IMG/VR virus record: IMGVR_UViG_3300041097_000006
Origin: a virus
DNA length: 64,000 bases
Strand: one strand, 5' to 3'
Part shown: positions 1,273-50,894 of the stretch, one piece after another
How the letters are laid out: each line of letters starts with the position of its first letter
Numbering within the stretch: position 1 is the stretch's first letter
Position numbers and translations under genes: made by a program
The notes under the pieces: generated by a model
What the model was told of the DNA's origin: nothing
The model's database searches: none
Seen by the model: only the letters and a program-made list of their open reading frames with translations

Positions 1273-1865
1273 AGGATCGCCCTCCGAAACGTCCGCAGCA
1301 ACTGCCACACGCCAAGCGGCACCTCGGCAACGGTGGTGCCAGTAATGGTCTGCTCGCGGTTTTCGTACAGGTGGCCCACGACCAGCAGGGCGGCTTGTTT
1401 GATCCGCAGGGGCAGGGGGTCCTCGTCGGCCGGGCTCAGGCTGTCGGTGTAGCCCGCCGTGAAATCGACTTGCACGGAGTCCGGCCAGTGCCGATGCTCC
1501 GGGTAATCCGCCTGCCAGGACCGCACCACGTGGCCTTCCGATGTGACCTCATACAACGCGGGGTCCAGCACCTGACGCACGCCGTCCGTGTCCAGGTACG
1601 TCACCTGCGCCACGCTCCGCACCGGCCGCAGCGGTAGGACAATGGTATCCGGTAGGTCGTCCAGCGCGTACCGCCAGTCCGAGGGCGAAACGGACAGCCC
1701 ACAGTGGTCTTCGACGTACTCCCGGGCCACGGTGACCATCGAGGTAATCAGGTCTAGGTCGGGGTGCGCCGGACTCTCGCCGTACCCATCCACGCGGAGA
1801 TGCGTAAACGCCTCGGCCACGGTGACCGGCTCCCACGCCGGTTGTGTCAGTCGAACTAGGCTCAC
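1269..1865 (-). CDS. Head-tail connector (HK97 gp6-like)
   Basis: EPVTVAEAFTHLRVD...LITSMVTVAREYVE...V.VDFTAGY...IKQAALLVVGHLYENRE. Confidence 0.92.
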   Translation of the reverse strand: MSLVRLTQPAWEPVTVAEAFTHLRVDGYGESPAHPDLDLITSMVTVAREYVEDHCGLSVSPSDWRYALDDLPDTIVLPLRPVRSVAQVTYLDTDGVRQVLDPALYEVTSEGHVVRSWQADYPEHRHWPDSVQVDFTAGYTDSLSPADEDPLPLRIKQAALLVVGHLYENREQTITGTTVAEVPLGVWQLLRTFRRAIL

Positions 1866-2491
1866 GCCGCGGCCCTCCGGAAAACGAACGTCTCAATGTC
1901 CTCCCGCCCCGCTGACTGCTCCATGCTGTTCGCATGGCACTGCTCCAACCCGAACCGCCCCATGAAATCCCGAATGCCCTCGCGGGTGAAATACCAGCAG
2001 TGTTCGTCCCGCCTGTAATGCTTCGACCCCATCACATGCGCGGCGTCGCGGAACACGGGGCAGGACACGAACACGTAGGACTGCACGGACTGGAGCAGCT
2101 GCGAGGGGTTGTGAATGTGCTCCAGCGAATCCCAAAAGCACAGCGCCCCCGCCGGCTCCGCGTAGGGGTCCGCCCACCGGCCAGTTTCCCGCAGCCAGGC
2201 TTCGGCGTATCGATTCACGTCGTACCCGCGGGCACCCCGTTTTTCCGTCACGAAACGCCCGCCCCCGATGCCAACGTCGACCACGCCGCCGTTATAGAAG
2301 CATTCCACCAGGTCGATGCGCATCTCCGTGAGCCGGGCGCCGATGGAAGTCTGGTCCATTTGCAGGTATCGCTCCCAATACGCTAGGCCATACGGGGCCT
2401 CGCGCACGGGATACCAGCCGATGCCCCGGTCAGGCAGCCAAATCAGCTGATCGGCGGTCAGCGAATCGAGTAGCGAATAATCGAGCGTCAT
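1862..2491 (-). CDS. Class I SAM-dependent methyltransferase (Methyltransf_23-like, probably glycan/small-molecule)
   Basis: VVDVGIGGGRFV motif I, GYDVN, CFWDSLEHI, EHCWYFT; start trimmed to MTLDY. Confidence 0.8.
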   Translation of the reverse strand: MTLDYSLLDSLTADQLIWLPDRGIGWYPVREAPYGLAYWERYLQMDQTSIGARLTEMRIDLVECFYNGGVVDVGIGGGRFVTEKRGARGYDVNRYAEAWLRETGRWADPYAEPAGALCFWDSLEHIHNPSQLLQSVQSYVFVSCPVFRDAAHVMGSKHYRRDEHCWYFTREGIRDFMGRFGLEQCHANSMEQSAGREDIETFVFRRAAA

Positions 2492-3320
2492 GATCGAACC
2501 CACTGATGGTTTTATTGCACGCGTGGCCCCACGAACTACAACGGCAGAATTCATCCGGCATCGCCGGGAAAATCCGATGCCCCCCGACCAGGGGACCTAA
2601 CAGCCGCTCCGGCCCGTTATCCGCCCCCCACCCTCCGAATACCAGCAGCAACGGGGTGCCAAACGTCAGGGCCGCGGGCACGACCCACCCGGGGCCGCCG
2701 ACTGCACACGCGGCCCGCGCGAACGCCCCCATCAGATCCGCCGGATGGACCTCCCCCGCATACCACCGGCCGTCCAGCCGCGGCTGCGGCCCTGGCGCGA
2801 GCCATTCGTCGCGGCCATGCAGATCCGCGAACCCGTAAGCCCGGAGCCCCGCCTCGACTGCCGCCGCAACCCCCCGCGCCAGGTACTGAGGGTCGGGGTT
2901 GCGCGCGTCCGCCCGCCACTCCGCCCGAATCGTGGCGGGCCGAAAAAACACGTAGGGGCTACCGCCCGGCGTAAACGCCCCCACCGGGGGCGGAACGAAC
3001 TCCGCCGGGCGCCGTGCCTCGCCGAGGTCGTCAAGCAATGCCTCCGTGATCGACACCCCCTTGCGGGCGGCGTAGTGCCAGCGCCGCACCGTGGCGCCCG
3101 CGGGGGCGGCGTGCCAGGACGACGCCGGCTGGCGCCTCACGTTCTTGCCCTGCGTGCGCAGCTTCGTGTTCGGCCGCACGCATTTGATTGGCATATCGGC
3201 GTAAAGCTCCGGCCAGGGGGTTGCGAGATACACCCCCTCCCACCCGAGCGCACGCAACACCGCCCGTTGATACAGGTTGTCCCCGAGGCCGTGCATGCCC
3301 TCAATCAGCAACGGTCTCAA
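2430..3320 (-). CDS. GT-B glycosyltransferase, GT9/heptosyltransferase-like
   Basis: N-terminal GMHGLGDNLYQRAVLRAL and C-terminal VGGPGWVVPAALTFGTPLLLVFGG; probable TTG start after GGAGG (start uncertain). Confidence 0.7.
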   Translation of the reverse strand: MRPLLIEGMHGLGDNLYQRAVLRALGWEGVYLATPWPELYADMPIKCVRPNTKLRTQGKNVRRQPASSWHAAPAGATVRRWHYAARKGVSITEALLDDLGEARRPAEFVPPPVGAFTPGGSPYVFFRPATIRAEWRADARNPDPQYLARGVAAAVEAGLRAYGFADLHGRDEWLAPGPQPRLDGRWYAGEVHPADLMGAFARAACAVGGPGWVVPAALTFGTPLLLVFGGWGADNGPERLLGPLVGGHRIFPAMPDEFCRCSSWGHACNKTISGFDHDARLFATRFADRRSADLAA

Positions 3321-4047
3321 GGGGCCTCCGCTCGAAACACCGTAGCGCGGTCTCGCGCGACGCATTGATGACCTCCACCCCGTTGAGCGCCAGGTCCAGC
3401 GCCAACGGCCCGAATTTTTCGATCCACACGTCATACGGAGATTCAACGTTCAGGCCCGCCGGGTGGTCACCGAACCAGTGCTTGCGGCCCCCTTTGCCCC
3501 TCCGCATGTCAAACCCGAGCAGCACCATGCGGGACGCTCCGGCATGGTATGCCAGGTTCATAGCCTGATATCCGGAGTTTCCACCCTCATGGATACGCCC
3601 CGCATCGAGGCACAGGCCCCGCCCGTTCGATGACGGGACGTGGTGCAGGCCGTACTGCGCGGCAGCCTCCGAGTCCCGCGTGTAGCACTTGCCGCGCAGA
3701 CCCGCCGGCAAGTCGGCATGATGCGCACGCCAGAATTTCCCATCGCACGCATACAGCGCGTCCAGCTCCGGCAGCATGCGATACGCATCATTCACACCGA
3801 GCATCTTCCAGCCGCGCGCTTTCGCCGCACGCACGTCCGATTCCACCAGGGACGGGCCGCCCGCGACGATACACACCGTGGCCCGCTCCCACATGCACCG
3901 GTACGCCGGGGCGGATACCAGGCGGCACGCCTGCCCGCGGGCCTCCAGTCGGGCCGCGCGCTGCGGGGTGACGTGCACAACGTCCCCCGGCATCGGCTTG
4001 CCTTCCGTGCCCACGTAGCGCCGCAAGACTCGCATTGCAATTTGCAT
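3301..4047 (-). CDS. DUF115/MAF_flag10 (Maf-like) putative glycosyltransferase with short N-terminal extension
   Basis: CIVAGGPSL...GVNDAY...LYACD..W...GGNSGYQAMNLAYHAGASRMVLLGFDM...VINAS. Confidence 0.7.
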   Translation of the reverse strand: MQIAMRVLRRYVGTEGKPMPGDVVHVTPQRAARLEARGQACRLVSAPAYRCMWERATVCIVAGGPSLVESDVRAAKARGWKMLGVNDAYRMLPELDALYACDGKFWRAHHADLPAGLRGKCYTRDSEAAAQYGLHHVPSSNGRGLCLDAGRIHEGGNSGYQAMNLAYHAGASRMVLLGFDMRRGKGGRKHWFGDHPAGLNVESPYDVWIEKFGPLALDLALNGVEVINASRETALRCFERRPLETVAD

Positions 4048-4104
4048 AACGCCCCCGGGGAAAAAGGGGGCCGGCCCCACAGACCGACCCCAACCCCGCC
4101 CCTG

Positions 4105-5333: not shown

Positions 5334-5936
5334 TTAAAAAGCGTTGAATTCGTTCCGCATAACTTCCGCCAGGCTGGGCGCAGCGTCCCGCCGTCCCGAC
5401 ATCGTGCGGAATCCCCCCGCAGCAATGGTAACCGCCTGGGTCTTGCTAAACCCTGCATCCCGCAGGAATTCCTCAAATTCTCGAATGGTCTTGACCGCAG
5501 ATACGCCGGCCGCCACGTTCATCGGGAACGTCACCAACGAAATTTCCCACAGCTTAAGCGCGGTCAACTTACGCACTCCACCCTTCGTAATCTCCGCCCC
5601 GCCCGGCAGCACGTCGTACCCAAACGACATGCCGCGCACACTGCGCGCCTTCATGTGCGCTAGGGCCACCTGAGAACGGGGATCTTCCAAGACCAGGCGC
5701 CCCTCGAACGCGAGGCCGTGCTTGTCACTCTTGACCCGCGCGGTGCCAATGGGCTGGTCCGAACGATGCTGCCACAGCATGACGACGCGGCCATCGGCGT
5801 TCGCCTCAAACTCCTTGAACGCCCCGGCTTGCACCACGTCGCCGCCGCGGTCCACGTTGCCGTACACTGACGCGTAGCCGGAGAACTCCCCCGCATCGTC
5901 CGCCTTGAACTCCGTTTCGCATGACAAGAATTTCAT
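5334..5936 (-). CDS. Prohead maturation protease (HK97 gp4 / peptidase S78)
   Basis: FSGYASVYGNVDRGGDVV..GAF, MLWQH...PIG, GMSFGY, LWEISLVTFPMN. Confidence 0.96.
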   Translation of the reverse strand: MKFLSCETEFKADDAGEFSGYASVYGNVDRGGDVVQAGAFKEFEANADGRVVMLWQHRSDQPIGTARVKSDKHGLAFEGRLVLEDPRSQVALAHMKARSVRGMSFGYDVLPGGAEITKGGVRKLTALKLWEISLVTFPMNVAAGVSAVKTIREFEEFLRDAGFSKTQAVTIAAGGFRTMSGRRDAAPSLAEVMRNEFNAF

Positions 5937-7168
5937 GCCTCACCCCCTGTTCCGATCTGTGATACCGGCGCCATGTTAACCTGCGCGGTGTAGGCACTCA
6001 TGCCGGGGTCATCGGACGGCGCTAAGTTCTCGCGCACGCGGACTTCATTCCGCGACATGACGCCGTTTTGCAAGAACACCGAGTACAACCCGGCCCGGCC
6101 CGGCGCATCGGCCCGACGCAGCGCGTCCACATCGAACCGGAGGAAATACCGGCCCCGCTGTTCCACGGGCAGCAGCGCCCGGGCAAAGCTTTGCTCGTAC
6201 CGCGTCAGGTACGGTAGGAGCGTGAATTGTAAAAACCCCTCGGCATATTTTTCCAAGCTGTTGTAACTCGCCGAATCCTGGGCCATGACCAGATATGGCG
6301 GCACCCGGTAGATGCGGCATATCTCTTCGACCTCGAACTTCCGTGTCTCAAGAAACTGCGCGTCTTCAAGCGGCATAGTAACCTGCTTGATGTCCATGCC
6401 GCCTTCGAGCAGCTTCACACTATGCGCGTTGGTTAAGCCGGTCCAAAGGTCGTTCAGGATCTTCCGCGCGGTCTCACGCTCTTTGTCGCCCAGCCAGTCC
6501 TTTGCCAGCACCACCGCGCTAGACACCGCACCCTGCTTGAAAAACCGTGCCCCGAAACTCTCGGCGGCCAGGCCGTACCCGATAGCCTGCCGGGCGTACC
6601 CAACCGGCGAGAGCCCCAGGTACCCGTTACTGCCAAACCCTTTGAGGTGCCACACCGCGGACTGCGGTAGCAGCGCACCCCCGCGCCGGTACTCCATCGT
6701 CCCGTCGGACAGCACCCGCGCCGTAATCGTCGGGTCCGGGGTAATTGACGTAGGCATGCCCCGTGTGACCGACCGCTCCACGTAGCTATAGGAATTCCCC
6801 GCGAGACACAGGGCCGATACTTGCGCCTCGCGCAGATCCTGCGGGGTCATCCACAGGTTCGGGCTGCCGTTCAGCAGGCCAGCCAGTTCATGGTCCAAGA
6901 CCGGAACCGCGGTGCCGTCCCTGCGCCGCTCGTAGATACCCCAAGGTAGGCCCGCGATGGTCTCCGACAACAGGCGCACGCATGACCACACAGTGGTCAG
7001 GCGGAGAGCCGTATCCTCCGAGATGGTGATACCCGCGTCGGTATCGACGCCCAGGATGCGCCGAATAAACGCTTCGTCCGTGAGCGAGTACGTGCGGCCC
7101 CCGGCGGCCTTCGTGCCGCCGAACAAGCGCCGCAGCAACCCGCCTACAGGACGGGGTTGTTTAGCCAT
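5933..7168 (-). CDS. Portal protein, HK97 family
   Basis: VWSCVRLLSETIAGLPW, GLSPV.YAR..IG, DAQFLETRKF.VEEICRIYRVPP, GVMSRNEVR..ENL. Confidence 0.96.
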   Translation of the reverse strand: MAKQPRPVGGLLRRLFGGTKAAGGRTYSLTDEAFIRRILGVDTDAGITISEDTALRLTTVWSCVRLLSETIAGLPWGIYERRRDGTAVPVLDHELAGLLNGSPNLWMTPQDLREAQVSALCLAGNSYSYVERSVTRGMPTSITPDPTITARVLSDGTMEYRRGGALLPQSAVWHLKGFGSNGYLGLSPVGYARQAIGYGLAAESFGARFFKQGAVSSAVVLAKDWLGDKERETARKILNDLWTGLTNAHSVKLLEGGMDIKQVTMPLEDAQFLETRKFEVEEICRIYRVPPYLVMAQDSASYNSLEKYAEGFLQFTLLPYLTRYEQSFARALLPVEQRGRYFLRFDVDALRRADAPGRAGLYSVFLQNGVMSRNEVRVRENLAPSDDPGMSAYTAQVNMAPVSQIGTGGEA

Positions 7169-8850
7169 CCAGATATCCCCTTGTCTTCCTCGCTCCGCAC
7201 CGCAGCCCGCGACATGCCCATGAATATGGCAATCGCCCCGTCAATTTTCTGATCCGCCGCTTGCTTGACGGGTGAGTGCAGCCCCTTCGTGCTCGGCTTC
7301 CCAACAACGTTCGACAGGCACCACGTGGTGACCGGGTTCCCGTCGTGGTGCACTCGCCCGTCCACCAGGGCGGCGATGAAGTCGTCAACCGGCAGGGCGA
7401 AATTCCACGGTTTCTGCTGGAACTCTACTATATCTAGGGAATCGCCGACAATCTCCCCCACATCTAGGGCTACCTGCTGCGCGTTGAAAGGGTCGAAGAT
7501 GAATTCCCGGGCCCCGTAGGTGCGCAAGTCCGCGGCCACCTGCTCGGTAATCAGGCCGAAGTCCACCACCGCGCCGAGGGTCGGGGTGAGATGCCCCTCG
7601 CGCACCCACCGTTCATAGCTGGTACGGTTTTTCCCAGGGGCCTCGATGGTCTCCTGGGGAAGCCAGTACCGGCCGAACAGGTAGTAGTGGGGCTTTCCGT
7701 CCAGATACTTACGGAATGTATAGCTGGCAGCGCACAGGTCGATCTTGGACGCCATATCCAGAGACCCGAAACACTCGCACCCCGCGAGGTCCGCCGGCAT
7801 CAACAGCGGGTCCGCTGCGCGCTGCCAGTGCGCCAGGGGGATCAGCTGCGAACCAGCGCCGCACCACGCATTCAGGTGCTTGGTCTTGAACCGCGCCTGT
7901 GTTGCCGGCGTCATGATGGCCGCCCGCTGTTGCGCAATCAAAAAATCCTCGAACACGGAAACCCCGTAGTTGGGGTTCGCCTTCCGCAGCGCGGCCGGGT
8001 CCGTCCAGTCGTCGGCGTCGTCGATGCCGTAGAGCAGCCCGAACGCCTCGGGGTCGTCGATGACACCCTCCAGGATTTTTTTCACCCCCTGTTCATGCTC
8101 GTAGCATGGGCCTGCCAGGTTGTCCCCGGCGGTGGTGATAATCAACAGCAGTGGCTGCTCTCGCGCGCCCATGCCGGTCTGCATCGTGTCCACTAGATCC
8201 GGTACAGCATGCTCATGGTATTCATCAACAATGGCCGCGTGCGGGCTGGCGCCGTCCCCAGGTTTTCCAATGACGGGCTCGAACCGCGAGAAGTCCGCCT
8301 CGATAACCATCGAAGCTTTCAGTACCTCAATCCCGGCCGCCTCCAGCAAGTCCGGCGTTTTCTCGGCCATGAGCCGCGCCGGCCGGAACACCTCCCACGC
8401 CTGCCTTTCCGTTGTGGCACCGCTGTACACCTCCGCACCGTGTTCCCCATCCGCGCAGAAGAGCGCCAGGCCGATGGCCGCGGCCAGTACTGACTTACCG
8501 TTCTTGCGGGGGATTCGCAAGTATGCCGAACGGAAACGGCGCAGGCCGTCCTTATGACGCCGCCATCCGAAAATGTTGCACACGATGAACGACTGCCACG
8601 GTGCCAGTATCAGCATCTGCCGTTGCGCGGCCCACTTGCCCTTGACGTGCGGCAGAGCCTCGATGAACCGACACACGCGCTCGGCTTCGTCGACGTCGAA
8701 ATAGTACGGGTGCCCCGGCGTGTCTGACTCGGCCAGGTCGTTCAGGAACCGTTCGCACGCGCGGACTACCCACGCGCAATTGGGGATGGCCCCGTCGATT
8801 ACACCGTGCGCATAATCGAGTGCTGCCTGGACGTGGGGGCAATCAGCCAC
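7144..8850 (-). CDS. terL: Terminase large subunit (Terminase_1, HK97-like)
   Basis: Walker A IPRKNGKS, Walker B IVDEYHEH, ITTAG, nuclease LDMASKIDL and KIDGAIA. Confidence 0.97.
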   Translation of the reverse strand: MADCPHVQAALDYAHGVIDGAIPNCAWVVRACERFLNDLAESDTPGHPYYFDVDEAERVCRFIEALPHVKGKWAAQRQMLILAPWQSFIVCNIFGWRRHKDGLRRFRSAYLRIPRKNGKSVLAAAIGLALFCADGEHGAEVYSGATTERQAWEVFRPARLMAEKTPDLLEAAGIEVLKASMVIEADFSRFEPVIGKPGDGASPHAAIVDEYHEHAVPDLVDTMQTGMGAREQPLLLIITTAGDNLAGPCYEHEQGVKKILEGVIDDPEAFGLLYGIDDADDWTDPAALRKANPNYGVSVFEDFLIAQQRAAIMTPATQARFKTKHLNAWCGAGSQLIPLAHWQRAADPLLMPADLAGCECFGSLDMASKIDLCAASYTFRKYLDGKPHYYLFGRYWLPQETIEAPGKNRTSYERWVREGHLTPTLGAVVDFGLITEQVAADLRTYGAREFIFDPFNAQQVALDVGEIVGDSLDIVEFQQKPWNFALPVDDFIAALVDGRVHHDGNPVTTWCLSNVVGKPSTKGLHSPVKQAADQKIDGAIAIFMGMSRAAVRSEEDKGISGWLNNPVL

Positions 8851-9274
8851 GTGAGAGCAGCCCTCTGAACGCGTTCGCTCTTGGTGCCACGGGCAGACCG
8901 CGCATGACCTCCCCGCGCCCGGTGGGCGTCAGGCCCAGAGCCCGTAGGATCACGAACAGCCGGTTCAGCAAAGCCGGTTCCATGAACGCCCCATCCGCGC
9001 GGAACCGCGTCAGCAGGACCGCGGCCATCTCCACCACGAAGGCATCCGAAGTTTTCAGGGCCCCGGGAGGGGCGGCCCGTACCAGTTCGGCATAGCACAG
9101 AGCCGACTCCCACCCCATGTGATCGGGCGGAATGGGCTCCAGATCGGGCAAGCCCCCGGGTGCAGGTGTGCCCCCGGGTGCAGGCGGGCCGGAGGGCGCC
9201 GGGGCGGCGCGACGCTGCGGGTTTTTTTTGTACGCCCCCCGCAGCTCTAGGACGTTGGTCGGTAGCCGGCGCAT
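8843..9274 (-). CDS. terS: Terminase small subunit (P27 family)
   Basis: RRLPTNVLELRG N-terminus, LGLTPTGR C-terminal motif, directly upstream of terL. Confidence 0.88.
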   Translation of the reverse strand: MRRLPTNVLELRGAYKKNPQRRAAPAPSGPPAPGGTPAPGGLPDLEPIPPDHMGWESALCYAELVRAAPPGALKTSDAFVVEMAAVLLTRFRADGAFMEPALLNRLFVILRALGLTPTGRGEVMRGLPVAPRANAFRGLLSRG

Positions 9275-9381
9275 CGCAGCATCCATCTAGTGGGTAGACG
9301 GATGCCTAATACTAGATGTAGGGGGGTTATGTCAAGGCGGGTCCCGGGGGAGGGGGCGTTAACCGACGGAATCCGGCGATG

Positions 9382-9435
9382 AACACGTTGCAGCGGACGG
9401 GCCTGACGGCCCTCCGCTGAATTCACACGTTAGGT
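9382..9435 (+). repeat. attC: attC site 1, truncated (L'', L', R' present; R'' missing)
   Basis: AACAC GTTGCAGC GGACGGGCCTGACGGCCCTCC GCTGAAT TCACAC GTTAGGT; the 7 bp where R'' should be read GGCGATG. Confidence 0.75.
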
Positions 9436-9600
9436 TTCTCGGGCACGCTTGAGCGCAGCCCGCAGCCATTCTTTACCGCCGAGGCGGTCGTACTTCGCCT
9501 TCTCGGCTTCCGTTACCCGCTCCCGAATCATGGCCGTCTGAGCCTCTTCTGGTGGCAGTGCGGGGCGTCCGCGTGGCTTCTTTGGGGCCGCCTTAGTCAT
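9430..9600 (-). CDS. Cassette 1: 56-aa ribbon-helix-helix-like DNA-binding protein
   Basis: MTKAAPKKPRGRPALPPEEAQTAMIRERVTEAEKAKYDRLGGKEWLRAALKRARET; paralogue at 12048-12215; TAA stop is the complement of the TTA in R'. Confidence 0.7.
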   Translation of the reverse strand: MTKAAPKKPRGRPALPPEEAQTAMIRERVTEAEKAKYDRLGGKEWLRAALKRARET

Positions 9601-9877
9601 TCGCGCTCCGCAGGTATTCGCGCAGCGTGAGCGTTTCTCCGGCGTGCAGCCGCTTGTTGCACTTCGGACAGGTGTATGTCGAGCCGTGCGAACCGTCGCT
9701 ATGCTCGCAATCAACCGGGTACGGTGCTTCTGACCAGCCGCGCGCCATGTTCCACAGGTCAGGCTCGCCATCGCTGCATGGCGTACCTGGCCGAGATTGC
9801 GCTCCGCAGCACTGGCAAACCGCCCGCACTTTCCCATTCCTCGCTCGCACATAATTGACCGCTTTGCTGGTGCTCAT
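9593..9877 (-). CDS. Cassette 1: zinc-ribbon protein (CxxC...CxxC), unknown function
   Basis: VCQCCG...TYTCPKCN; GGGAG 7 nt before ATG 9877; overlaps the start of the regulator gene. Confidence 0.7.
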   Translation of the reverse strand: MSTSKAVNYVRARNGKVRAVCQCCGAQSRPGTPCSDGEPDLWNMARGWSEAPYPVDCEHSDGSHGSTYTCPKCNKRLHAGETLTLREYLRSAND

Positions 9878-9909
9878 CGTTTGCTCCCGCTTTCGTTGAT
9901 CGTGCATTT

Positions 9910-9955
9910 AGTGTGGCACAACAATTAGCGGTGCGCAAGCATTATTTGTGGCACA
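9910..9955 (-). promoter_or_regulatory. Cassette 1 sigma70-like promoter with two TGTG-G-CACA operator-like palindromes
   Basis: Minus strand TTGCGC-17bp-CACACT; TGTGGCACA at 9912-9920 and 9947-9955; same layout in cassette 6. Confidence 0.6.
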
Positions 9956-9958
9956 AAA

Positions 9959-10016
9959 ACCTAACTCCACATTGCACCGGATCGCCTCCGGCGCCCGGTG
10001 AATTCAGTCGTTAGAG
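9959..10016 (+). repeat. attC: attC site 2 (58 bp, intact)
   Basis: ACCTAAC TCCAC ATT[G]CACC GG[A]TCGCCTCCGGCGCCC GGTGAAT TCAGTC GTTAGAG. Confidence 0.92.
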
Positions 10017-10273
10017 CGCATGCGAATCTTGTCCGCCGCATCCCCAGCCGTTCCGTGTTCGTGGTCGCAGATGTTTGCGCAAACCTCGCGCTCGGCGAGC
10101 ACAGCCAGCCCGACGCAGTTCTCCGCAATCGCTTCTACTTGCTTGCGCCCGTCGCGCTCGCCGGCTTTGTATGCCGCTTGCGCAACCTCTTCCGCGTCCG
10201 CTCTCCCGATCCCATGCCCGGCCATCATGGAGTGGTATCGCTTGCTGCGCTTCTTCCAGTCTGCAAAGCTCAT
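10004..10273 (-). CDS. Cassette 2: 89-aa hypothetical phage protein
   Basis: GGGAG SD; AAYKAGERDG...AEREVCANIC...AADKIRMRSN resembles small phage proteins; ends inside attC2. Confidence 0.7.
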   Translation of the reverse strand: MSFADWKKRSKRYHSMMAGHGIGRADAEEVAQAAYKAGERDGRKQVEAIAENCVGLAVLAEREVCANICDHEHGTAGDAADKIRMRSND

Positions 10274-10302
10274 TTGTCGTTCTCCCTCTTGTCGGCCGTG
10301 CG

Positions 10303-10360
10303 CTCTAACACTACGTTGCAGCCGACCGCCTTCGGCGGCGGCTGAACTTCGACGTTAGAG
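10303..10360 (+). repeat. attC: attC site 3 (58 bp, intact)
   Basis: CTCTAAC ACTAC GTT[G]CAGC CG[A]CCGCCTTCGGCGGCG GCTGAAC TTCGAC GTTAGAG. Confidence 0.95.
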
Positions 10361-10367
10361 CGCTCCA

Positions 10368-11060
10368 TCACTCCGCACCAAAGCTCGCGGCAAGCCGGTC
10401 GTCGAAAGCGTCGTCGCTCTTGTCGCGCAAGATGCCCTCGAAAAACACGTCGGGCTCAGACTCCAGCAGGAAATGCGTCGCGCACGTCCAGGCTTTCGCC
10501 TCATCCTTCGCTTCCGGCGTCATCCTCTCGCTGCGGTCAATGGCCGCGAGGTATTCGCACTTCCGGCACTCTTGGCCGAGTCCGCAGCGCAAATGGTTGT
10601 CGGGTAGCGGCATCGCCGGTCTGGGGTCGTGGCCGCACATCTTGTAGCTGGTCGGCATGCCGCGCTCGCGCTCGTACTGGAACAGCAGCACCATGCGTGG
10701 CACTTCGTCGCTGATCTTCATTGCCGAGTACATCACTCGCGGCCACTCGCCGCCGTTCTCGCGCAGCCGGTCGCTCTCGGCGTTGCAGGCAGCGTGCCAT
10801 GCGTGGTCGCCGCATCCGCGCTGGTCAGTTCCACGGTTCGCCCGTTCCAGCCGCATTCCGCGCATGTACTCGGCGCCTTCCTTCAGCTGCTCCAGCATGT
10901 TGCCGCGGTCTCTGGCATAGCGGCGCAGGTACACGCCGGCCATCAGGCGGTCCTTCTGCTCAGGCGTCATTTTGTCGCGGTCCATGCCGGGCCAGCGCCA
11001 TAGCTCTTCGTGGTCAATCCGGTTCGCCAGTGCTTCCAGTTCTTCGGGTGTTGCTGCCAT
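10368..11060 (-). CDS. Cassette 3: ~230-aa hypothetical protein with Cys/His-rich C-terminal half
   Basis: Long ORF filling the cassette; GGAG 9 nt before ATG 11060; CGH...HLRC...ECRKC...WTCATH. Confidence 0.8.
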   Translation of the reverse strand: MAATPEELEALANRIDHEELWRWPGMDRDKMTPEQKDRLMAGVYLRRYARDRGNMLEQLKEGAEYMRGMRLERANRGTDQRGCGDHAWHAACNAESDRLRENGGEWPRVMYSAMKISDEVPRMVLLFQYERERGMPTSYKMCGHDPRPAMPLPDNHLRCGLGQECRKCEYLAAIDRSERMTPEAKDEAKAWTCATHFLLESEPDVFFEGILRDKSDDAFDDRLAASFGAE

Positions 11061-11089
11061 CTTCAAATTCTCCAAGTTCTACCACCGCG

Positions 11090-11146
11090 CTCTAACTATC
11101 GCTTGCAGCGGACGCCGTACCGGCGCCGCTGAAGCTGGCGTTAGAA
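11090..11146 (+). repeat. attC: attC site 4 (57 bp, intact)
   Basis: CTCTAAC TATCG CTT[G]CAGC GG[A]CGCCGTACCGGCGCC GCTGAAG CTGGC GTTAGAA. Confidence 0.95.
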
Positions 11147-11398
11147 CCCTTGAAACTCGCCCATGCGCTCGAACTGGTCGCGGGTCAGGAATACCGGCGT
11201 CACGGTGTATTCGCAGTCGCTCTCCGCAACCATCGCCTCAGCCTCGGCCGGCTCCATCACGCACGCGGTGCCGTCGTGCTCGACGCGAGAAAATCGCTCC
11301 GTCTTGTAGTCTTCGCACCCCGGCGCATGGTCAGCCGGTGGGTATTTGCCGCCCTTCGTTTCTTGCCAGTCGCGGCACCAGTCCTTGCAGTTGCACAT
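11141..11398 (-). CDS. Cassette 4: 85-aa hypothetical protein (Cys-rich N-terminus)
   Basis: MCNCKDWC...HAPGC...; SD GGAGG comes from the attC5 spacer; TAA stop lies in R' of attC4. Confidence 0.7.
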   Translation of the reverse strand: MCNCKDWCRDWQETKGGKYPPADHAPGCEDYKTERFSRVEHDGTACVMEPAEAEAMVAESDCEYTVTPVFLTRDQFERMGEFQGF

Positions 11399-11401
11399 GG
11401 G

Positions 11402-11489
11402 TTCTAACCCTCCGTTGCAGCAGACGCCGTGAAGCGCCGCAGGTTTATCCAAGCGCCGTCGCGCGGCGCTGCTGAACTACACGTTATGC
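11402..11489 (+). repeat. attC: attC site 5 (88 bp, intact)
   Basis: TTCTAAC CCTCC GTT[G]CAGC AG[A]CGCCG...CGGCGCT GCTGAAC TACAC GTTATGC. Confidence 0.93.
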
Positions 11490-12004
11490 GACGCAGCCCG
11501 AATCTCCCACAGGGTTCGAGCAACCCCGCTTTCCTCGGTGGCATCGCGCTTGTCCCGGAGCTTCACGCTGCTTTCGGCCCAGTTCTTGCGCGGTGCCAAG
11601 TCCTTCGCTTTCACCCAACCGGCAGCGCGGAGGGATGCCCCGCTTTCGTCCTGCCGGGTGTAGGTAATACACCGCCTGTACCCCATGGCTTTCGCCGCCC
11701 GCCAAATCGCCCCATACAACATCGAGTTGGCATTTCTGGTTCCATCGGTGCAAGTGCGGTTAACTTCCAAGGTCAGGCCGTCGTCAAAGCACCGGGCCAC
11801 GGGTCGCCCAGCCGTAGCAACGCCAACCAGTTCGGTGCCCTGGCGCAGCCCAACCCCAAACTTCCAGCCTGTCGGCGGCTTGTTGTGTCGGCGCATCGCG
11901 GCCACGAACGCCTTGGCCTCTGCCAGTGTTATCGGCACCACATGCAAAACCGGCATAACAAGGCGGTCAAGCGGACCTGCCGAAACGGCGCTTTCGCTCA
12001 TCAT
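11477..12004 (-). CDS. Cassette 5: XF1762-family phage protein (GNAT-like fold, inferred)
   Basis: RHNKPPTGWKFGVG, LVGVATAGRPVAR.FDDGLTLEVNRTCTDGTRNANSMLYGA, ITYT..DESGASLRAAGW; start lies inside attC6. Confidence 0.8.
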   Translation of the reverse strand: MMSESAVSAGPLDRLVMPVLHVVPITLAEAKAFVAAMRRHNKPPTGWKFGVGLRQGTELVGVATAGRPVARCFDDGLTLEVNRTCTDGTRNANSMLYGAIWRAAKAMGYRRCITYTRQDESGASLRAAGWVKAKDLAPRKNWAESSVKLRDKRDATEESGVARTLWEIRAASHNV

Positions 12005-12046
12005 TTACCCTTATCTCGCGGCAGTCCGCTTACCTCTACGTTAGGT
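11953..12046 (+). repeat. attC: attC site 6 (94 bp, intact)
   Basis: GCATAAC AAGGC GGT[C]AAGC GGA[C]CTGCCG...CGGCAGTCC GCTTACC TCTAC GTTAGGT. Confidence 0.93.
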
Positions 12047-12051
12047 TTCAT
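12001..12051 (-). CDS. Possible 16-codon coupling mini-ORF through attC6 (MKPNVEVSGLPRDKGK)
   Basis: ATG overlaps the stop of the 12048-12215 gene and its TGA overlaps the ATG of the cassette 5 gene (ATGA at both ends). Confidence 0.4.
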   Translation of the reverse strand: MKPNVEVSGLPRDKGK

Positions 12052-12215
12052 TTCCGCGGCTTCCTGGCCAGCTCGCGCACAAGCCAAGCCTTCCCGCCAC
12101 GCGCTTCGTATTCAGCCTTCTGTGCCTCCGTCACCCGCTCCCGAATCATGGCCGTCTGCGCTTGGTCAGGCGGTAGCGCAGGACGGCCGGGCTGTCGTTT
12201 CTCGGCCTTGGTCAT
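12048..12215 (-). CDS. Cassette 6: 55-aa ribbon-helix-helix-like DNA-binding protein (absent from ORF track)
   Basis: Hand translation MTKAEKRQPGRPALPPDQAQTAMIRERVTEAQKAEYEARGGKAWLVRELARKPRK; 28/36 identical to the cassette 1 regulator core. Confidence 0.75.
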   Translation of the reverse strand: MTKAEKRQPGRPALPPDQAQTAMIRERVTEAQKAEYEARGGKAWLVRELARKPRK

Positions 12216-12403
12216 GCGGCAATCGCATCCACGCCAGGAGCGCGAATCACAAGATCATTGCTGCCGCAATCCGGGCAACAATAGTTGTCCACCTTGGTCA
12301 AGGTGCCATCGGCCTTCCAGCCGGTCCAAGGCTTGTTCTCCCGCTCTTCCAGCGGGAGAATTACGCGGCACTTCATGCAACGGAAATGGGTCTCGGTTTT
12401 CAT
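12212..12403 (-). CDS. Cassette 6: 63-aa zinc-ribbon protein
   Basis: FRCMKCR...YCCPDCGSNDL; GGAGG SD before ATG 12403; ATGA-coupled to the regulator. Confidence 0.7.
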   Translation of the reverse strand: MKTETHFRCMKCRVILPLEERENKPWTGWKADGTLTKVDNYCCPDCGSNDLVIRAPGVDAIAA

Positions 12404-12414
12404 CTTCGCCTCCA

Positions 12415-12558
12415 TTACTTCGGGGCGCGTTGCGTAACTTTGAGCTGACCCTTCAGGTGGCCTTCGAGAATTTCGATCTCGTAGAACATCCCGCCGTGAA
12501 TGGTCATGGTCTTGCCGGTATAGCGGGCTAGGTCGCCGTAGAAGTAGGTGGTTTTCAT
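12415..12558 (-). CDS. Cassette 6: 47-aa hypothetical protein
   Basis: MKTTYFYGDLARYTGK...; GGAG SD; first gene after the cassette promoter. Confidence 0.65.
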   Translation of the reverse strand: MKTTYFYGDLARYTGKTMTIHGGMFYEIEILEGHLKGQLKVTQRAPK

Positions 12559-12589
12559 GTTGCGCTCCGCGTTCGTTGATGGTGTAGTT

Positions 12590-12634
12590 ATTGTGGCGCA
12601 ATAATCAACCATTGTCAAGCGTTTTCGTGGCACA
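12590..12634 (-). promoter_or_regulatory. Cassette 6 sigma70 promoter with two operator-like palindromes
   Basis: Minus strand TTGACA-17bp-CACAAT; TGTGGCGCA at 12592-12600 and CGTGGCACA at 12626-12634. Confidence 0.7.
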
Positions 12635-12637
12635 GAA

Positions 12638-12707
12638 ACCTAACTCCACATTCCACCGGACGGCCCAAATCTGCGCTTTGGTCCTCCGGTGAATTCAGCC
12701 GTTGGGC
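12638..12707 (+). repeat. attC: attC site 7 (70 bp, intact)
   Basis: ACCTAAC TCCAC ATT[C]CACC GG...CC GGTGAAT TCAGCC GTTGGGC; close relative of attC2. Confidence 0.92.
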
Positions 12708-13258
12708 TTCATGAAAACGTACCAGTGCGTTCCGGCCTTCTTGCCGGAGGTGTTGCCGAACAGTGGCCGCACTGGCGTCAGATCCAAGACCTCGCGCACC
12801 TTCACTTGCGTTTCGTTCCACTTGAACACGAGCACGCCGTGAGGCCTCAGCACGCGGAAGCATTCGGCAAAGCCGGCGCGCAGGTCGTCGCGCCAGTCCT
12901 GGCCGAGCTTCCCGTACTTCGCCGCCAGCCAGGAGCGCGGGCCAGCGCGCACCAAATGCGGCGGGTCAAACGCTACGAGGTGGAAGCTCTCTTCCGGGTA
13001 TGGCAGCGCCCGGAAGTCCATCATCACGTCCGGCTCAATGCACAGCGTTCGCGTGCCATCCTCGCGGCCGTGCGAGCGGTCGGTCACGGTCACGGTCTCG
13101 CTGCGCCGGTCTCCGAACACGACGTCCGGGTTCTCGCGGTCAAACCAGAACATCCGGCTACCGCAGCAGGGGTCAAGCACGCGCGGCATGCAGCCCAACC
13201 CGTCGGTCAACACGGACTGCCCGCCAGCAGCGTTCGTTCGCGCGTTGTGGTCGCTCAA
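12695..13258 (-). CDS. Cassette 7: phage SAM-dependent (putative DNA amino-) methyltransferase
   Basis: VLDPCCGSRMFWF, DFRALPY, VAFDPPHL, ECFRVLRPHGVLVFKWNE; SD AAGGAG and TTG start inside attC8. Confidence 0.85.
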   Translation of the reverse strand: MSDHNARTNAAGGQSVLTDGLGCMPRVLDPCCGSRMFWFDRENPDVVFGDRRSETVTVTDRSHGREDGTRTLCIEPDVMMDFRALPYPEESFHLVAFDPPHLVRAGPRSWLAAKYGKLGQDWRDDLRAGFAECFRVLRPHGVLVFKWNETQVKVREVLDLTPVRPLFGNTSGKKAGTHWYVFMKPNG

Positions 13259-13318
13259 CCTTCTTCTCCTTCGGTGGCCGCGCCAGAGGCGGGCAGCCGG
13301 TTACCTTCGACGTTAGAG
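13193..13318 (+). repeat. attC: attC site 8 (126 bp, intact, three extrahelical bases)
   Basis: GCCCAAC CCGTC GGT[C]AAC[A]CGG[A]CTGCCCGCC...GGCGGGCAGCCGGTTACC TTCGAC GTTAGAG. Confidence 0.92.
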
Positions 13319-13510
13319 CGCGTCTTGATCCTGCGCGTAATAGACCTTCCTCGCCTCGGAAATAACTTGCGTAATCGCAGAGCCGAGCCGCGAGGATGGC
13401 CACTTGTTTTCGAGTTGGTCCCGCAGAGCCGTCCACTCCTTCACCGACATGGTGATCTTCACGGTTGCCTCAATCTCGTCAGGCGCTTCAATCATGAATC
13501 TGGCTTTCAT
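13313..13510 (-). CDS. Cassette 8: 65-aa hypothetical protein
   Basis: MKARFMIEAPDEIEATVKITMSVKEW...; GGAG SD; TAA stop in R' of attC8. Confidence 0.7.
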   Translation of the reverse strand: MKARFMIEAPDEIEATVKITMSVKEWTALRDQLENKWPSSRLGSAITQVISEARKVYYAQDQDAL

Positions 13511-13533
13511 TTCTTTCTCCGTAGTTACCTGCG

Positions 13534-13578
13534 CTCTAACATTTGCGTCAACGCGGACGCTTCGCAAGCTCAGCGCCG
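13534..13578 (+). repeat. attC: attC site 9, truncated (R'', L'' and inner stem present; L' and R' missing)
   Basis: CTCTAAC ATTTG CGT[C]AAC[G]CGG[A]CGCT...AGCGCCG, then unrelated sequence in place of GTTACG...GTTRRRY. Confidence 0.75.
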
Positions 13579-13589
13579 ACTGCACCGGC

Positions 13590-13670
13590 ATTGTGGAACC
13601 GAAAATTTGCCTGGGAGCGACGGTTTCCATTCCGCCACGCCACGAAATTTTCACCCCCCTTCCCCTCCGT
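13590..13670 (-). other. Putative cos / packaging-initiation region
   Basis: G-rich run then AAAATTTC...GGAAACCG...AAATTTTCGG right after the HNH stop; in HK97-like phages cos lies between HNH and terS (inference from position). Confidence 0.4.
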
Positions 13671-14115
13671 CGATATTTTCCGAACAGGATCGGCCAATCG
13701 GCATTTCCCGCGGCCCGTCGTCCGGCTGCCGGCTCGTACCGTCACGCTGGCGCCCCGGGTGCCGCTCGTAGCCCCTCTGACGCTCCGCCTCCGACTTGGC
13801 ATCACTGCATGCCCGGCAGAGCCCTTGCGTATTCTCCGGCGTGTCCGAGCCGCCTTCAGCCAGCGGCACGATGTGATCCCGAATCGTCGCCAGTTCGACC
13901 CGTCCCGCCGCCTCACACGCCGCGCACAACGGGGAGTGCCGAAACAGTTCCTCGCGCTGCCGCTGGAGCCATCGCCCGGTTCTCCGCCGGCCCGTTTCGC
14001 TCGCGGTATTTTTCCACGCCGGTTGTTCGTGATCGCCACACCGCGAGGATTTACCGTCCGTTAATTCTGTGCATCCAGGATACGTGCACGGTTTTTTCGG
14101 TAATTTTCTCGCCAC
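13651..14115 (-). CDS. HNH endonuclease (HK97 gp74-like terminase accessory)
   Basis: KPCTYPGC...RC..H, PLCAAC...ATIRDHIVPLAEGGSD...N.QGLCRAC..AKS; GTG start after AGGAGG. Confidence 0.9.
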   Translation of the reverse strand: MARKLPKKPCTYPGCTELTDGKSSRCGDHEQPAWKNTASETGRRRTGRWLQRQREELFRHSPLCAACEAAGRVELATIRDHIVPLAEGGSDTPENTQGLCRACSDAKSEAERQRGYERHPGRQRDGTSRQPDDGPREMPIGRSCSENIDGGEGG

Positions 14116-14196
14116 GGTATTTCCTCCTGAAATATAAATAGGCATCCCGCATACCGTCCGGCCCGCCGTCCGATTCGCCCATCTCCTCCATCCCCT

Positions 14197-14396
14197 TGTC
14201 CGAAACGTCCGATTCACCTCCCCTTTAGGGGGTGAATCGGACGTTTCGGACATAGGGGAATGGATGGGCGTACGATAATCGACGTGACTAATCGGACATG
14301 AATCGTACGCTGATTCGTACGCTGCGAATACGAAAAATCGGACGATAATTATCGTCATGAACGCGGTAATTATGAGCCCGGTTATCATAATTACCG
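14197..14396. promoter_or_regulatory. Cluster of perfect inverted repeats (candidate replication origin or regulatory hub)
   Basis: 22-bp IR 14197-14218/14231-14252, 16-bp palindrome GACGATAATTATCGTC 14341-14356, 12-bp IR 14364-14375/14385-14396; recurrent AATCGGAC and CGTACG. Confidence 0.6.
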
Positions 14397-14675
14397 TACC
14401 GAACCCGCCCGCACCACGGGATACCGGCCCGTCCGCCAAATCGTCCAGGGCGAATTCAACGCCCCCCGTAACCCGCCGGGGGCCAGGTCCAGCAGCGCGC
14501 AACACCACACGAACCCGAACGGCCGGCGGTCGTCGCTGTATACCCACCGCGCGGGCTCCAGTGTGGCCGCCACGTCCGGGGGCATCTGGCGCAGGTTCGC
14601 CTGGTGGTCACGGACGGCCTGGAGGATGACGGCGGCCACCAGGCCCCGGTGAAACGCTATTTGCTCGGCGTTCAT
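14391..14675 (-). CDS. Hypothetical protein (94 aa)
   Basis: LVAAVILQAVRD...ARW..SDD..PFGFVWCC..LDL.P..LR pattern typical of small phage proteins; ATGA-coupled. Confidence 0.7.
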   Translation of the reverse strand: MNAEQIAFHRGLVAAVILQAVRDHQANLRQMPPDVAATLEPARWVYSDDRRPFGFVWCCALLDLAPGGLRGALNSPWTIWRTGRYPVVRAGSVR

Positions 14676-47754: not shown

Positions 47755-47909
47755 CGCAGCATCCATCTAGTGGGTAGACGGATGCCTAATACTAGATGTA
47801 GGGGGGTTATGTCAAGGCGGGTCCCGGGGGAGGGGGCGTTAACCGACGGAATCCGGCGATGAACACGTTGCAGCGGACGGGCCTGACGGCCCTCCGCTGA
47901 ATTCACACG

Positions 47910-48080
47910 TTAGGTTTCTCGGGCACGCTTGAGCGCAGCCCGCAGCCATTCTTTACCGCCGAGGCGGTCGTACTTCGCCTTCTCGGCTTCCGTTACCCGC
48001 TCCCGAATCATGGCCGTCTGAGCCTCTTCTGGTGGCAGTGCGGGGCGTCCGCGTGGCTTCTTTGGGGCCGCCTTAGTCAT
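47910..48080 (-). CDS. Copy 2: cassette 1 RHH-like regulator
   Basis: Same as 9430-9600. Confidence 0.7.
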   Translation of the reverse strand: MTKAAPKKPRGRPALPPEEAQTAMIRERVTEAEKAKYDRLGGKEWLRAALKRARET

Positions 48081-48357
48081 TCGCGCTCCGCAGGTATTCG
48101 CGCAGCGTGAGCGTTTCTCCGGCGTGCAGCCGCTTGTTGCACTTCGGACAGGTGTATGTCGAGCCGTGCGAACCGTCGCTATGCTCGCAATCAACCGGGT
48201 ACGGTGCTTCTGACCAGCCGCGCGCCATGTTCCACAGGTCAGGCTCGCCATCGCTGCATGGCGTACCTGGCCGAGATTGCGCTCCGCAGCACTGGCAAAC
48301 CGCCCGCACTTTCCCATTCCTCGCTCGCACATAATTGACCGCTTTGCTGGTGCTCAT
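48073..48357 (-). CDS. Copy 2: cassette 1 zinc-ribbon protein
   Basis: Same as 9593-9877. Confidence 0.7.
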   Translation of the reverse strand: MSTSKAVNYVRARNGKVRAVCQCCGAQSRPGTPCSDGEPDLWNMARGWSEAPYPVDCEHSDGSHGSTYTCPKCNKRLHAGETLTLREYLRSAND

Positions 48358-48483
48358 CGTTTGCTCCCGCTTTCGTTGATCGTGCATTTAGTGTGGCACA
48401 ACAATTAGCGGTGCGCAAGCATTATTTGTGGCACAAAAACCTAACTCCACATTGCACCGGATCGCCTCCGGCGCCCGGTGAAT

Positions 48484-48753
48484 TCAGTCGTTAGAGCGCA
48501 TGCGAATCTTGTCCGCCGCATCCCCAGCCGTTCCGTGTTCGTGGTCGCAGATGTTTGCGCAAACCTCGCGCTCGGCGAGCACAGCCAGCCCGACGCAGTT
48601 CTCCGCAATCGCTTCTACTTGCTTGCGCCCGTCGCGCTCGCCGGCTTTGTATGCCGCTTGCGCAACCTCTTCCGCGTCCGCTCTCCCGATCCCATGCCCG
48701 GCCATCATGGAGTGGTATCGCTTGCTGCGCTTCTTCCAGTCTGCAAAGCTCAT
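48484..48753 (-). CDS. Copy 2: cassette 2 hypothetical protein
   Basis: Same as 10004-10273. Confidence 0.7.
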   Translation of the reverse strand: MSFADWKKRSKRYHSMMAGHGIGRADAEEVAQAAYKAGERDGRKQVEAIAENCVGLAVLAEREVCANICDHEHGTAGDAADKIRMRSND

Positions 48754-48847
48754 TTGTCGTTCTCCCTCTTGTCGGCCGTGCGCTCTAACACTACGTTGCA
48801 GCCGACCGCCTTCGGCGGCGGCTGAACTTCGACGTTAGAGCGCTCCA

Positions 48848-49540
48848 TCACTCCGCACCAAAGCTCGCGGCAAGCCGGTCGTCGAAAGCGTCGTCGCTCT
48901 TGTCGCGCAAGATGCCCTCGAAAAACACGTCGGGCTCAGACTCCAGCAGGAAATGCGTCGCGCACGTCCAGGCTTTCGCCTCATCCTTCGCTTCCGGCGT
49001 CATCCTCTCGCTGCGGTCAATGGCCGCGAGGTATTCGCACTTCCGGCACTCTTGGCCGAGTCCGCAGCGCAAATGGTTGTCGGGTAGCGGCATCGCCGGT
49101 CTGGGGTCGTGGCCGCACATCTTGTAGCTGGTCGGCATGCCGCGCTCGCGCTCGTACTGGAACAGCAGCACCATGCGTGGCACTTCGTCGCTGATCTTCA
49201 TTGCCGAGTACATCACTCGCGGCCACTCGCCGCCGTTCTCGCGCAGCCGGTCGCTCTCGGCGTTGCAGGCAGCGTGCCATGCGTGGTCGCCGCATCCGCG
49301 CTGGTCAGTTCCACGGTTCGCCCGTTCCAGCCGCATTCCGCGCATGTACTCGGCGCCTTCCTTCAGCTGCTCCAGCATGTTGCCGCGGTCTCTGGCATAG
49401 CGGCGCAGGTACACGCCGGCCATCAGGCGGTCCTTCTGCTCAGGCGTCATTTTGTCGCGGTCCATGCCGGGCCAGCGCCATAGCTCTTCGTGGTCAATCC
49501 GGTTCGCCAGTGCTTCCAGTTCTTCGGGTGTTGCTGCCAT
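48848..49540 (-). CDS. Copy 2: cassette 3 hypothetical protein
   Basis: Same as 10368-11060. Confidence 0.8.
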   Translation of the reverse strand: MAATPEELEALANRIDHEELWRWPGMDRDKMTPEQKDRLMAGVYLRRYARDRGNMLEQLKEGAEYMRGMRLERANRGTDQRGCGDHAWHAACNAESDRLRENGGEWPRVMYSAMKISDEVPRMVLLFQYERERGMPTSYKMCGHDPRPAMPLPDNHLRCGLGQECRKCEYLAAIDRSERMTPEAKDEAKAWTCATHFLLESEPDVFFEGILRDKSDDAFDDRLAASFGAE

Positions 49541-49620
49541 CTTCAAATTCTCCAAGTTCTACCACCGCGCTCTAACTATCGCTTGCAGCGGACGCCGTAC
49601 CGGCGCCGCTGAAGCTGGCG

Positions 49621-49878: not shown

Positions 49879-49956
49879 GGGTTCTAACCCTCCGTTGCAG
49901 CAGACGCCGTGAAGCGCCGCAGGTTTATCCAAGCGCCGTCGCGCGGCGCTGCTGAA

Positions 49957-50484: not shown

Positions 50485-50527
50485 TTACCCTTATCTCGCG
50501 GCAGTCCGCTTACCTCTACGTTAGGTT

Positions 50528-50883: not shown

Positions 50884-50894
50884 CTTCGCCTCCA

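Follow-up and report, generated by a model that had tools for sequence, protein, structure and literature searches.

Why does a tailed phage carry a row of attC sites, the recombination sites of integron cassettes, beside its terminase genes? The question is raised by IMG/VR virus record IMGVR_UViG_3300041097_000006, of which a stretch of 64,000 nucleotides (nt; hereafter the window) was analysed. In these 64 kb, a circularly permuted genome of 38,480 bp is read through 1.66 times. Nine attC-type sites, all on the + strand, span positions 9379-13578, from the terS side to the cos (cohesive) end of the genome, and delimit eight cassettes. We conclude that this array consists of genuine attC sites bounding integron cassettes, and that the region is very probably the cassette array of a phage-type integron that lost its integrase.

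Identity of the nine attC sites

Sites S1-S7 were used to build a covariance model, R1, comprising R'', a 5-nt spacer, a bulged L'', a second bulge, a variable loop, L', a 6-nt spacer and R'. Seven of the nine sites are strong, one is weaker and one is a truncated half-site:

9379-9435, + strand: S1; intact L'', loop, L' and R' (G|TT at 9429), without a proper R''; 60.3 bits with R1
9959-10016, + strand: S2, 58 nt
10303-10360, + strand: S3, 58 nt
11090-11146, + strand: S4, 57 nt
11402-11489, + strand: S5, 88 nt
11953-12046, + strand: S6, 94 nt
12638-12707, + strand: S7, 70 nt
13193-13318, + strand: S8, 126 nt, the weaker site
13532-~13578, + strand: S9, the 5' half only (R'' and L'')

Sites S2-S8, 57-126 nt long with CTAAC/GTTAG-type cores, fit the RYYYAAC...GTTRRRY palindrome of 57-141 nt that defines attC. 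An initial annotation, made from the letters of the window, had described nine palindromes with full attC anatomy, seven of which it counted as intact. The full anatomy holds for S2-S8, but not for S1, where the region of R'' resembles attI instead of RYYYAAC, nor for S9, which lacks its 3' half. The asymmetric arms with two extrahelical bases that it described are indeed present, as the bulges fall at R1 model positions 16 and 23 and the strand bias is strong, with R1 scores of 55-74 bits on the + strand and at most 21 bits on the - strand. The identity of the extrahelical bases showed no difference between phage and bacterial sites.

Recovery by R1 of its own training sites is circular, and it is the independent controls that carry the weight. 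When R1 was run with filters off over the entire 38,480-bp unit, it returned the training sites and S8, which lay outside the training set (29.8 bits, E 7e-6), and otherwise just weak palindrome matches at 14200-14249. The model also matches the aadA1 attC of plasmid R100/In2 over its full length on the aadA1 coding strand (58.9 bits, E 6e-15), as compared with 13.6 bits on the other strand. In 25 bacterial loci picked solely for encoding an integron integrase, all 75 of the 75 R1 matches were found upstream of intI on the opposite strand, which is the canonical place, and in 1.27 Mb from 80 phage loci picked by TerL similarity there were zero matches at E<=0.01. R1 and these controls together confirm the coordinates first given for the nine + strand sites.

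Pairing within the sites adds to this support. In S1-S7, 90.9% of the aligned cells pair, compared with 74% in shuffles and 26-44% in slid controls, and 11 pairs are altered on both sides, a number matched by 0 of 500 shuffles. Folding of the bottom strands, a check proposed with the initial annotation, gave z values of -2.0 to -5.3 for S1-S7 (S1, -4.4), but only -1.3 for S8 and +0.5, meaning no fold, for S9. Beyond the core, R' of one site and R'' of the next are complementary at 6-7 of 7 positions for seven of the eight junctions, as against a mean of about 3 for the two ends of one site or for sites that are not adjacent. Such complementarity of adjacent ends is the footprint of crossover at G|TT.

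It could be argued that the palindromes are terminators, repetitive extragenic palindromic (REP)-like repeats or operator hairpins whose likeness to attC is fortuitous, since they are intergenic and no Rfam family matches them. Against this, R1 detects real attC sites in a strand-specific manner and with zero control matches, the arms covary, the boundaries sit exactly at G|TT, and none of the hairpins was flagged as an intrinsic terminator. We regard the probability of a chance resemblance as close to nil.

The weak R1 matches at 14200-14249 (19 and 16 bits, on both strands) belong to a long near-perfect palindrome in non-coding DNA upstream of the HNH gene. Without the asymmetry of attC, it is probably a regulatory or origin element.

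Cassette genes run antisense to attC

The sites divide the region into the following cassettes, each given in + strand coordinates and ending in its own attC:

9430-10010, + strand: cassette 1, ending in S2; - strand genes, a zinc-ribbon-like open reading frame (ORF) at 9593-9877 and a ribbon-helix-helix (RHH)-like 56-aa ORF at 9430-9600
10011-10354, + strand: cassette 2, ending in S3; - strand gene 10004-10273, 89 aa
10355-11140, + strand: cassette 3, ending in S4; - strand gene 10368-11060, 230 aa
11141-11483, + strand: cassette 4, ending in S5; - strand gene 11141-11398, 85 aa
11484-12040, + strand: cassette 5, ending in S6; - strand gene 11477-12004, Mom-like DNA modification protein (phrog_1384, E 3e-37)
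12041-12701, + strand: cassette 6, ending in S7; three small - strand genes, 12415-12612, 12212-12415 and 12048-12215
12702-13312, + strand: cassette 7, ending in S8; - strand gene 12695-13189/13258, DNA methyltransferase (phrog_954, E 3.5e-72)
13313-13578, + strand: cassette 8, ending in the truncated S9; - strand gene 13313-13510, 65 aa

In this list, all cassette genes lie on the - strand, antisense to the top strand of attC, with attC on the 5' side of the gene. Both halves of this statement were checked. That each attC belongs to the left-hand cassette on the + strand is indicated by three lines: the polarity of R1, calibrated with the aadA1 attC and the 75 bacterial-integron matches; the paralogous cassettes 1 and 6, which have their right-hand attC arms in common but not their left-hand sites; and the boundaries of cassette 3. 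The - strand is shown for the genes of cassettes 5 and 7 by their PHROG matches and for that of cassette 3 by its homologues, and for the genes generally it fits codon-position G+C and the independent gene calls of the Joint Genome Institute (JGI) and Logan. In R100, by contrast, the aadA1 coding strand is the attC top strand. A classical cassette is promoterless, with its gene sense to attC and attC downstream of it; here the genes are reversed, and cassette 6 has a promoter-like site. As a result of the flipped genes, the whole array is read in the direction of terS, TerL and the rest of the phage.

Cassettes 1 (9430-10016) and 6 (12041-12707) are paralogues at both ends. They have in common an RHH-like gene of 55-56 aa, a promoter/operator region with TGTGGCAC repeats (two copies upstream in cassette 1) and the attC arms, and they differ in their middle genes (zinc-ribbon-like). 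Cassette 6 has a predicted sigma-70-like promoter at 12618-12590 (- strand; TTGACA-17-CACAAT). The two may be self-regulated or addiction-type modules. The annotated cargo, namely the Mom-like protein and the methyltransferase, probably serves anti-restriction functions.

Several genes reach into the recombination sites. Those of cassettes 2, 5 and 7 overrun G|TT by 2-4 codons (10004-10010, 11477-11483 and 12695-12701) and end within the neighbouring attC, in its L'-R' spacer, the stop codon of cassette 2 lying past G|TT inside the S2 spacer; their last residues and stop codon would thus change when the cassette moves. For the gene of cassette 4, a Shine-Dalgarno GGAGG (within 11398-11415) is found in the 5-nt R''-L'' spacer of S5, so that this recombination site partly doubles as a translation signal.

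Cassette 3 in other phages

Cassette 3 together with S4 recurs in two phage contigs, L107 and L240, at 83-87% identity. L107, 40 kb long, is a phage contig that encodes tail and lysis proteins and a serine recombinase. Its copy of cassette 3 (87% identical) is the first cassette and adjoins a 336-aa IntI, which is a true integron integrase by its TIGR02249 score of 477 bits (cut-off 265). In L240 the copy (90% identical) is the fourth cassette counted from an IntI that scores 469 bits against the same cut-off, and a TIGR02249 integrase is also present in the relative L124. In the DNA alignment, the homology shared by the window, L107 and L240 begins precisely at G|TTAGAGCGC, and to the left of this point each has another neighbour (S3, an attI-like sequence or a further attC). 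The L107 homology stops precisely at the GTTA of the cassette's own attC. From these boundaries, at least one cassette, cassette 3, is mobile between unrelated phages.

For the 230-aa protein of cassette 3, 225 homologues were found, and the protein is widespread in phages. Members of the family are also encoded by ordinary genes with no attC nearby, beside NinB, YqaJ or Tad3 in the early regions of phages and prophages. In one prophage on a 170-kb contig (L114, 10001-11982), for example, the non-cassette homologue lies between genes of the YqaJ-type exonuclease and Tad3 (anti-Thoeris) families, which hints that the family belongs to anti-defence neighbourhoods. No match to the protein was found in Pfam, PHROG, PDB sequences or the Atlas, and its AlphaFold model (predicted local distance difference test score, pLDDT, 77) had no fold match in the PDB or the AFDB clusters.

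The mirrored layout among phage integrons

The reversed genes are not peculiar to this genome. A pattern scan for one L'' motif gave 21 viral contigs, many with arrays, five of which are without IntI (two of these five being at least 95% complete), and a scan with the L107 IntI gave 38 viral contigs with IntI relatives. When the best ORF per cassette was taken with one crude GC-frame ORF scorer for all arrays, it was antisense to attC in 59 of 64 phage cassettes, compared with 6 of 41 cassettes in bacterial arrays with related IntIs (Fisher p 2e-16), an effect size that is indicative, as the ORF caller is noisy and the arrays are phylogenetically non-independent. In the 3 kb upstream of intI, viral contigs had co-directional genes in 20 cases and divergent genes in 0, in contrast to bacterial loci, which are mostly divergent.

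The one-way arrangement comes in two forms, the first with flipped genes and the array upstream of intI (L107, L122, L124, L135, L148 and L240), the second with sense genes and the array downstream of intI (L139 and L140). The mirrored layout is a class across phage arrays, beyond this one phage. IntIs of the L107 type form a clade (98% by the Shimodaira-Hasegawa-like approximate likelihood ratio test, SH-aLRT) of 14 viral contigs, one 6-kb contig of a metagenome-assembled genome and one Aromatoleum contig with co-directional upstream genes; this clade is nested among betaproteobacterial chromosomal IntIs.

The second one-way form, in which the attC sites follow intI on its own strand and the genes are sense, makes up another kind of viral integron (L139, L140, L143-L145, L156 and L157). 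In integron-bearing phage contigs, there is a second, separate recombinase directly after intI, a 540-aa serine recombinase in L107 (10763-13542) and a 316-aa tyrosine integrase in L240 (1789-3949). It is presumably the phage's own integrase, and intI would then sit at the end of the accessory operon, adjoining the lysogeny module.

An attI remnant and the genome end flank the array

The two ends of the array are marked by these features:

9353-9386, + strand: attI remnant with a conserved attI core; R box replaced; fused to the L'' arm of S1
13611-13623, no strand: apparent physical genome end, ~35 nt right of S9, between that site and the HNH 3' end

In ten loci of the L107-type IntI clade, ~60 nt between the intI ATG and an invariant GTT are conserved, and all ten sequences diverge beyond the GTT, which is the signature of attI followed by differing first cassettes. 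A profile of these 10 IntI-linked attI regions was searched with nhmmer against the whole genome, on both strands and without filters. It gave a single significant match, at 9353-9383 on the + strand (E 0.0034; runner-up E 2.5), adjoining S1 on the expected side and strand. The exact attI pattern had 2 matches only in viral contigs. Because the remnant passes directly into the spacer and L'' of S1, it explains why S1 has no R''. We read this as a deletion that would have taken the attI end, any first cassette and the R'' of S1; intI was presumably lost, or never imported. On this sequence match, the left end is an attI remnant and the array very probably a decayed phage-type integron.

The remnant also bears on whether the array is a piece of a host chromosomal integron captured by the phage, as in the published Vibrio anguillarum and Shewanella cases. 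Phage integrons of that sort are on record (PMC9892861), and the phage IntI clade does nest among betaproteobacterial chromosomal IntIs. However, the attI remnant fits the attI of the phage clade, and bacterial arrays with related IntIs are sense by 35:6, as is the Shewanella phage M16-3, whereas all genes here are antisense. In addition, the cargo is of phage type, the sole shared cassette was found in phage contigs, and the non-cassette homologues of cassette 3 are in phage or prophage regions. Host capture is therefore very improbable.

At the right-hand end, the contigs of four sediment runs and of three JGI assemblies either break off at 13611/13628 or begin at 13623, with adapter sequence directly after 13611 and before 13623. 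Most simply, the terminus at 13611-13623 is cos, with an ~11-nt overhang. The linear virion order is then cos, the truncated S9, cassettes 8 to 1, the attI remnant, terS and TerL onward, with the HNH gene at the far end. A simple attC x attG insertion was considered as the origin of the block and rejected, as the halves are the wrong ones: the left end retains L boxes and the right end is without them.

Origin and present state of the array

For a phage-type integron that lost its integrase, an origin can be proposed. An integron integrase, in an ancestor or in a donor with a phage-type integron, would have joined the cassettes at G|TT via folded attC bottom strands. The intI gene may once have lain between attI and terS, or the block may have been brought in from such an integron. 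The array would now be expressed from the - strand with the packaging genes, and also from its own predicted promoters in cassettes 1 and 6. Relatives that are still intact (L107, L240, L124 and others) have the array read towards a co-directional intI.

Several points weigh against this account, apart from the noise in the orientation counts. At 31 nt, the attI match is short (13 bits, E 0.0034), and no recognisable intI trace remains in the genome. The search for junctions suggested at the outset came out empty, as no joints, variants or circles of the array were seen in the contigs of four sediment runs, which is weak evidence given that it comes from contigs only. The other phage copies (L102-L106) are 100% identical and thus represent one clone. 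A close relative of the phage was not found, which leaves no view of gain, loss or reordering in the backbone. When all cassette proteins were compared with the fetched arrays by tblastn, cassette 3 alone matched, and the anti-restriction role of the cargo is taken from family names alone.

Is the array live, then, or a fossil? In the latter case, the block would have been imported once, by phage mosaicism or illegitimate recombination from an integron-bearing phage, and would not have recombined since. We give this a little less than an even chance. It would account for the damage to both outer sites, S1 and S9, for a genome without an integrase and for identical copies without joints in several assemblies; the contigs of the nearest TerL relatives open 67-108 bp ahead of terS, which fits no array there, or within terS. 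On the other hand, S2-S7 have full anatomy, good folding and high scores, which would decay without selection or a recent origin, related IntIs are common in phage contigs and betaproteobacterial genomes, and the identity of the copies is uninformative when all are one clone. S2-S7 look fully competent, and they might or might not still exchange cassettes if an IntI were supplied by the host or a co-resident phage, with equal probability either way. The balance between a live and a fossil array is about even. The recombinable gene-shuffling system first proposed therefore survives in part: the region is cassette-built and cassette 3 moves between phages, but there is no integrase, attI is damaged and both ends are broken.

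Beyond this genome, we lean slightly towards the view that phages keep their own integron lineage with a mirror-image cassette pool. With canonical attC/attI/intI geometry and antisense genes, phage read-through would express the array plus the terminal intI, and Pc-driven classical integrons would be unable to express such cassettes. Unrelated phages would swap accessory genes, probably for anti-defence, through this pool. The gene flip also makes the bottom strand, the recombinogenic one, coincide with the sense strand, and it would be the lagging-strand template if replication follows transcription. In an inverted Vibrio cholerae array with the bottom strands on the lagging-strand template, cassette excision is greatly increased, according to Richard et al. 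2024 (PMC13108822). We infer only by analogy that the phage layout would raise excision likewise, provided that replication is co-directional with transcription.

Genome and surroundings of the array

The genome (65% G+C) is that of a tailed phage. The neighbours of the array are as follows:

8843-9286, - strand: terS, left neighbour of the array
7144-8850: TerL, beyond terS
5933-7168: portal, beyond TerL
13651-14547, - strand: HNH endonuclease gene (PF01844, E 9e-8), right neighbour of the array, across cos
47833-52058, + strand: second array copy, an artefact

The second copy arises because the window wraps round the 38,480-bp genome, and what had been reported as the same array at 47862-52058 is the same DNA. 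Besides terS, TerL and portal, the structural and lysis genes identified are those for a protease, the capsid, a phiJL001/gene transfer agent (GTA)-type tail module and a lysis glucosaminidase, and the replication genes are those for a primase-helicase, an SNF2-type helicase, a family A polymerase, DUF2800 and an Enc34-type single-stranded-DNA-binding protein. Neither a recombinase nor an integron integrase was found among the sizeable ORFs of the window, and thus no intI matching TIGR02249 accompanies the array as in a complete integron. With its two or more attC sites and no nearby intI, the array is a cluster of attC sites lacking an integron integrase (CALIN).

A megablast search with the array and the first 9.3 kb (structural genes and terminase) against 50,697 phage records gave no close record. 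The nearest TerL among 5.8 billion proteins is 73% identical, and the next best are 59% and 58%; the contigs of these relatives do not span the interval between cos and terS. The leader sequences of the TerL relatives had no similarity to the window flanks, and a scan of viral contigs with the HNH protein gave no match. The genes neighbouring the array in the window are not found beside the other phage arrays, meaning that there is no shared hot spot.

Between the capsid and head-tail connector genes (1862-4080), there are an MptE-like gene, one unnamed gene and a Methyltransf_23 gene. The Methyltransf_23 gene is at the same place in the TerL relatives L119-L121, and the MptE-like gene is also present in L119. 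This trio may be a virion modification module.

Comparison with known integron systems

Integrons have been studied as bacterial devices, for resistance and lately for anti-phage defence. If a mirrored phage lineage exists, the phage side of the arms race would use the same shuffling machinery, with a gene pool mechanically compatible with bacterial integrons but isolated in expression. The cassette 3 family, found both as a cassette and as an ordinary phage gene, would offer a natural test of how genes acquire attC. Phage annotation pipelines and integron finders that assume sense genes would mislabel or miss mirrored arrays.

In the literature searched, we found no account of uniformly antisense cassette genes or a mirrored phage platform, of a phage-associated IntI clade with a compact attI and co-directional layout, of one cassette passing between unrelated phages, or of an attI remnant marking a phage CALIN as a decayed integron. 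The presence of attC arrays in phages is itself already published, and the basic claim is not new. Among 10,705 phage genomes, Qi et al. 2023 (PMC9892861) found 3 complete integrons, one In0 and 17 CALINs, in virulent and temperate phages, and IntI1 recombined 5 of the 6 phage attC sites tested; methyltransferase cassettes were also noted. The statement in the initial annotation that attC sites are normally described on chromosomes, plasmids and transposons is thus out of date. Like the array reported here, the published phage CALINs are attC arrays without an integron integrase and with DNA methyltransferase cargo. They are short, however (3 sites in TJE1), as compared with nine sites, eight cassettes, an attI remnant and all genes antisense in the present case, and gene orientation relative to attC is not discussed in that study (PMC9892861). 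R1 gave no match on phage TJE1.

Shewanella phage M16-3 (MZ568829) also has intI and cassettes in a phage record, in the canonical layout with sense genes divergent from intI, and its integron is host-derived by that paper's account (PMC9892861). The L107-type platform, unlike M16-3, is co-directional and has its own IntI clade.

In the 'inverted integrase' integrons, intI has the same orientation as the cassettes. This group (compare L139 and L140) resembles the present array in its one-way transcription, but has the array downstream of intI and sense genes. The present array keeps the canonical attC/intI geometry and has just its genes flipped. Chromosomal integrons also contain toxin-antitoxin cassettes, often in reverse orientation; they are an exception in chromosomal arrays, whereas every cassette is reversed here. 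Such cassettes carry their own promoters, as stated in PMC13108822, and cassettes 1 and 6 are similar in having their own predicted promoters.

In its recombination features, the array resembles classical integrons (In2 on R100, and the chromosomal integrons of Beta- and Gammaproteobacteria), with which it shares the attC anatomy and polarity, the attC-intI-attI geometry, the G|TT crossover and the complementary ends. Classical cassette genes are sense to attC, and transcription from Pc (the cassette promoter) leads away from intI. In the array described here and its phage relatives, the genes are antisense, and reading proceeds towards intI or terS, either through phage transcription or from promoters of their own.

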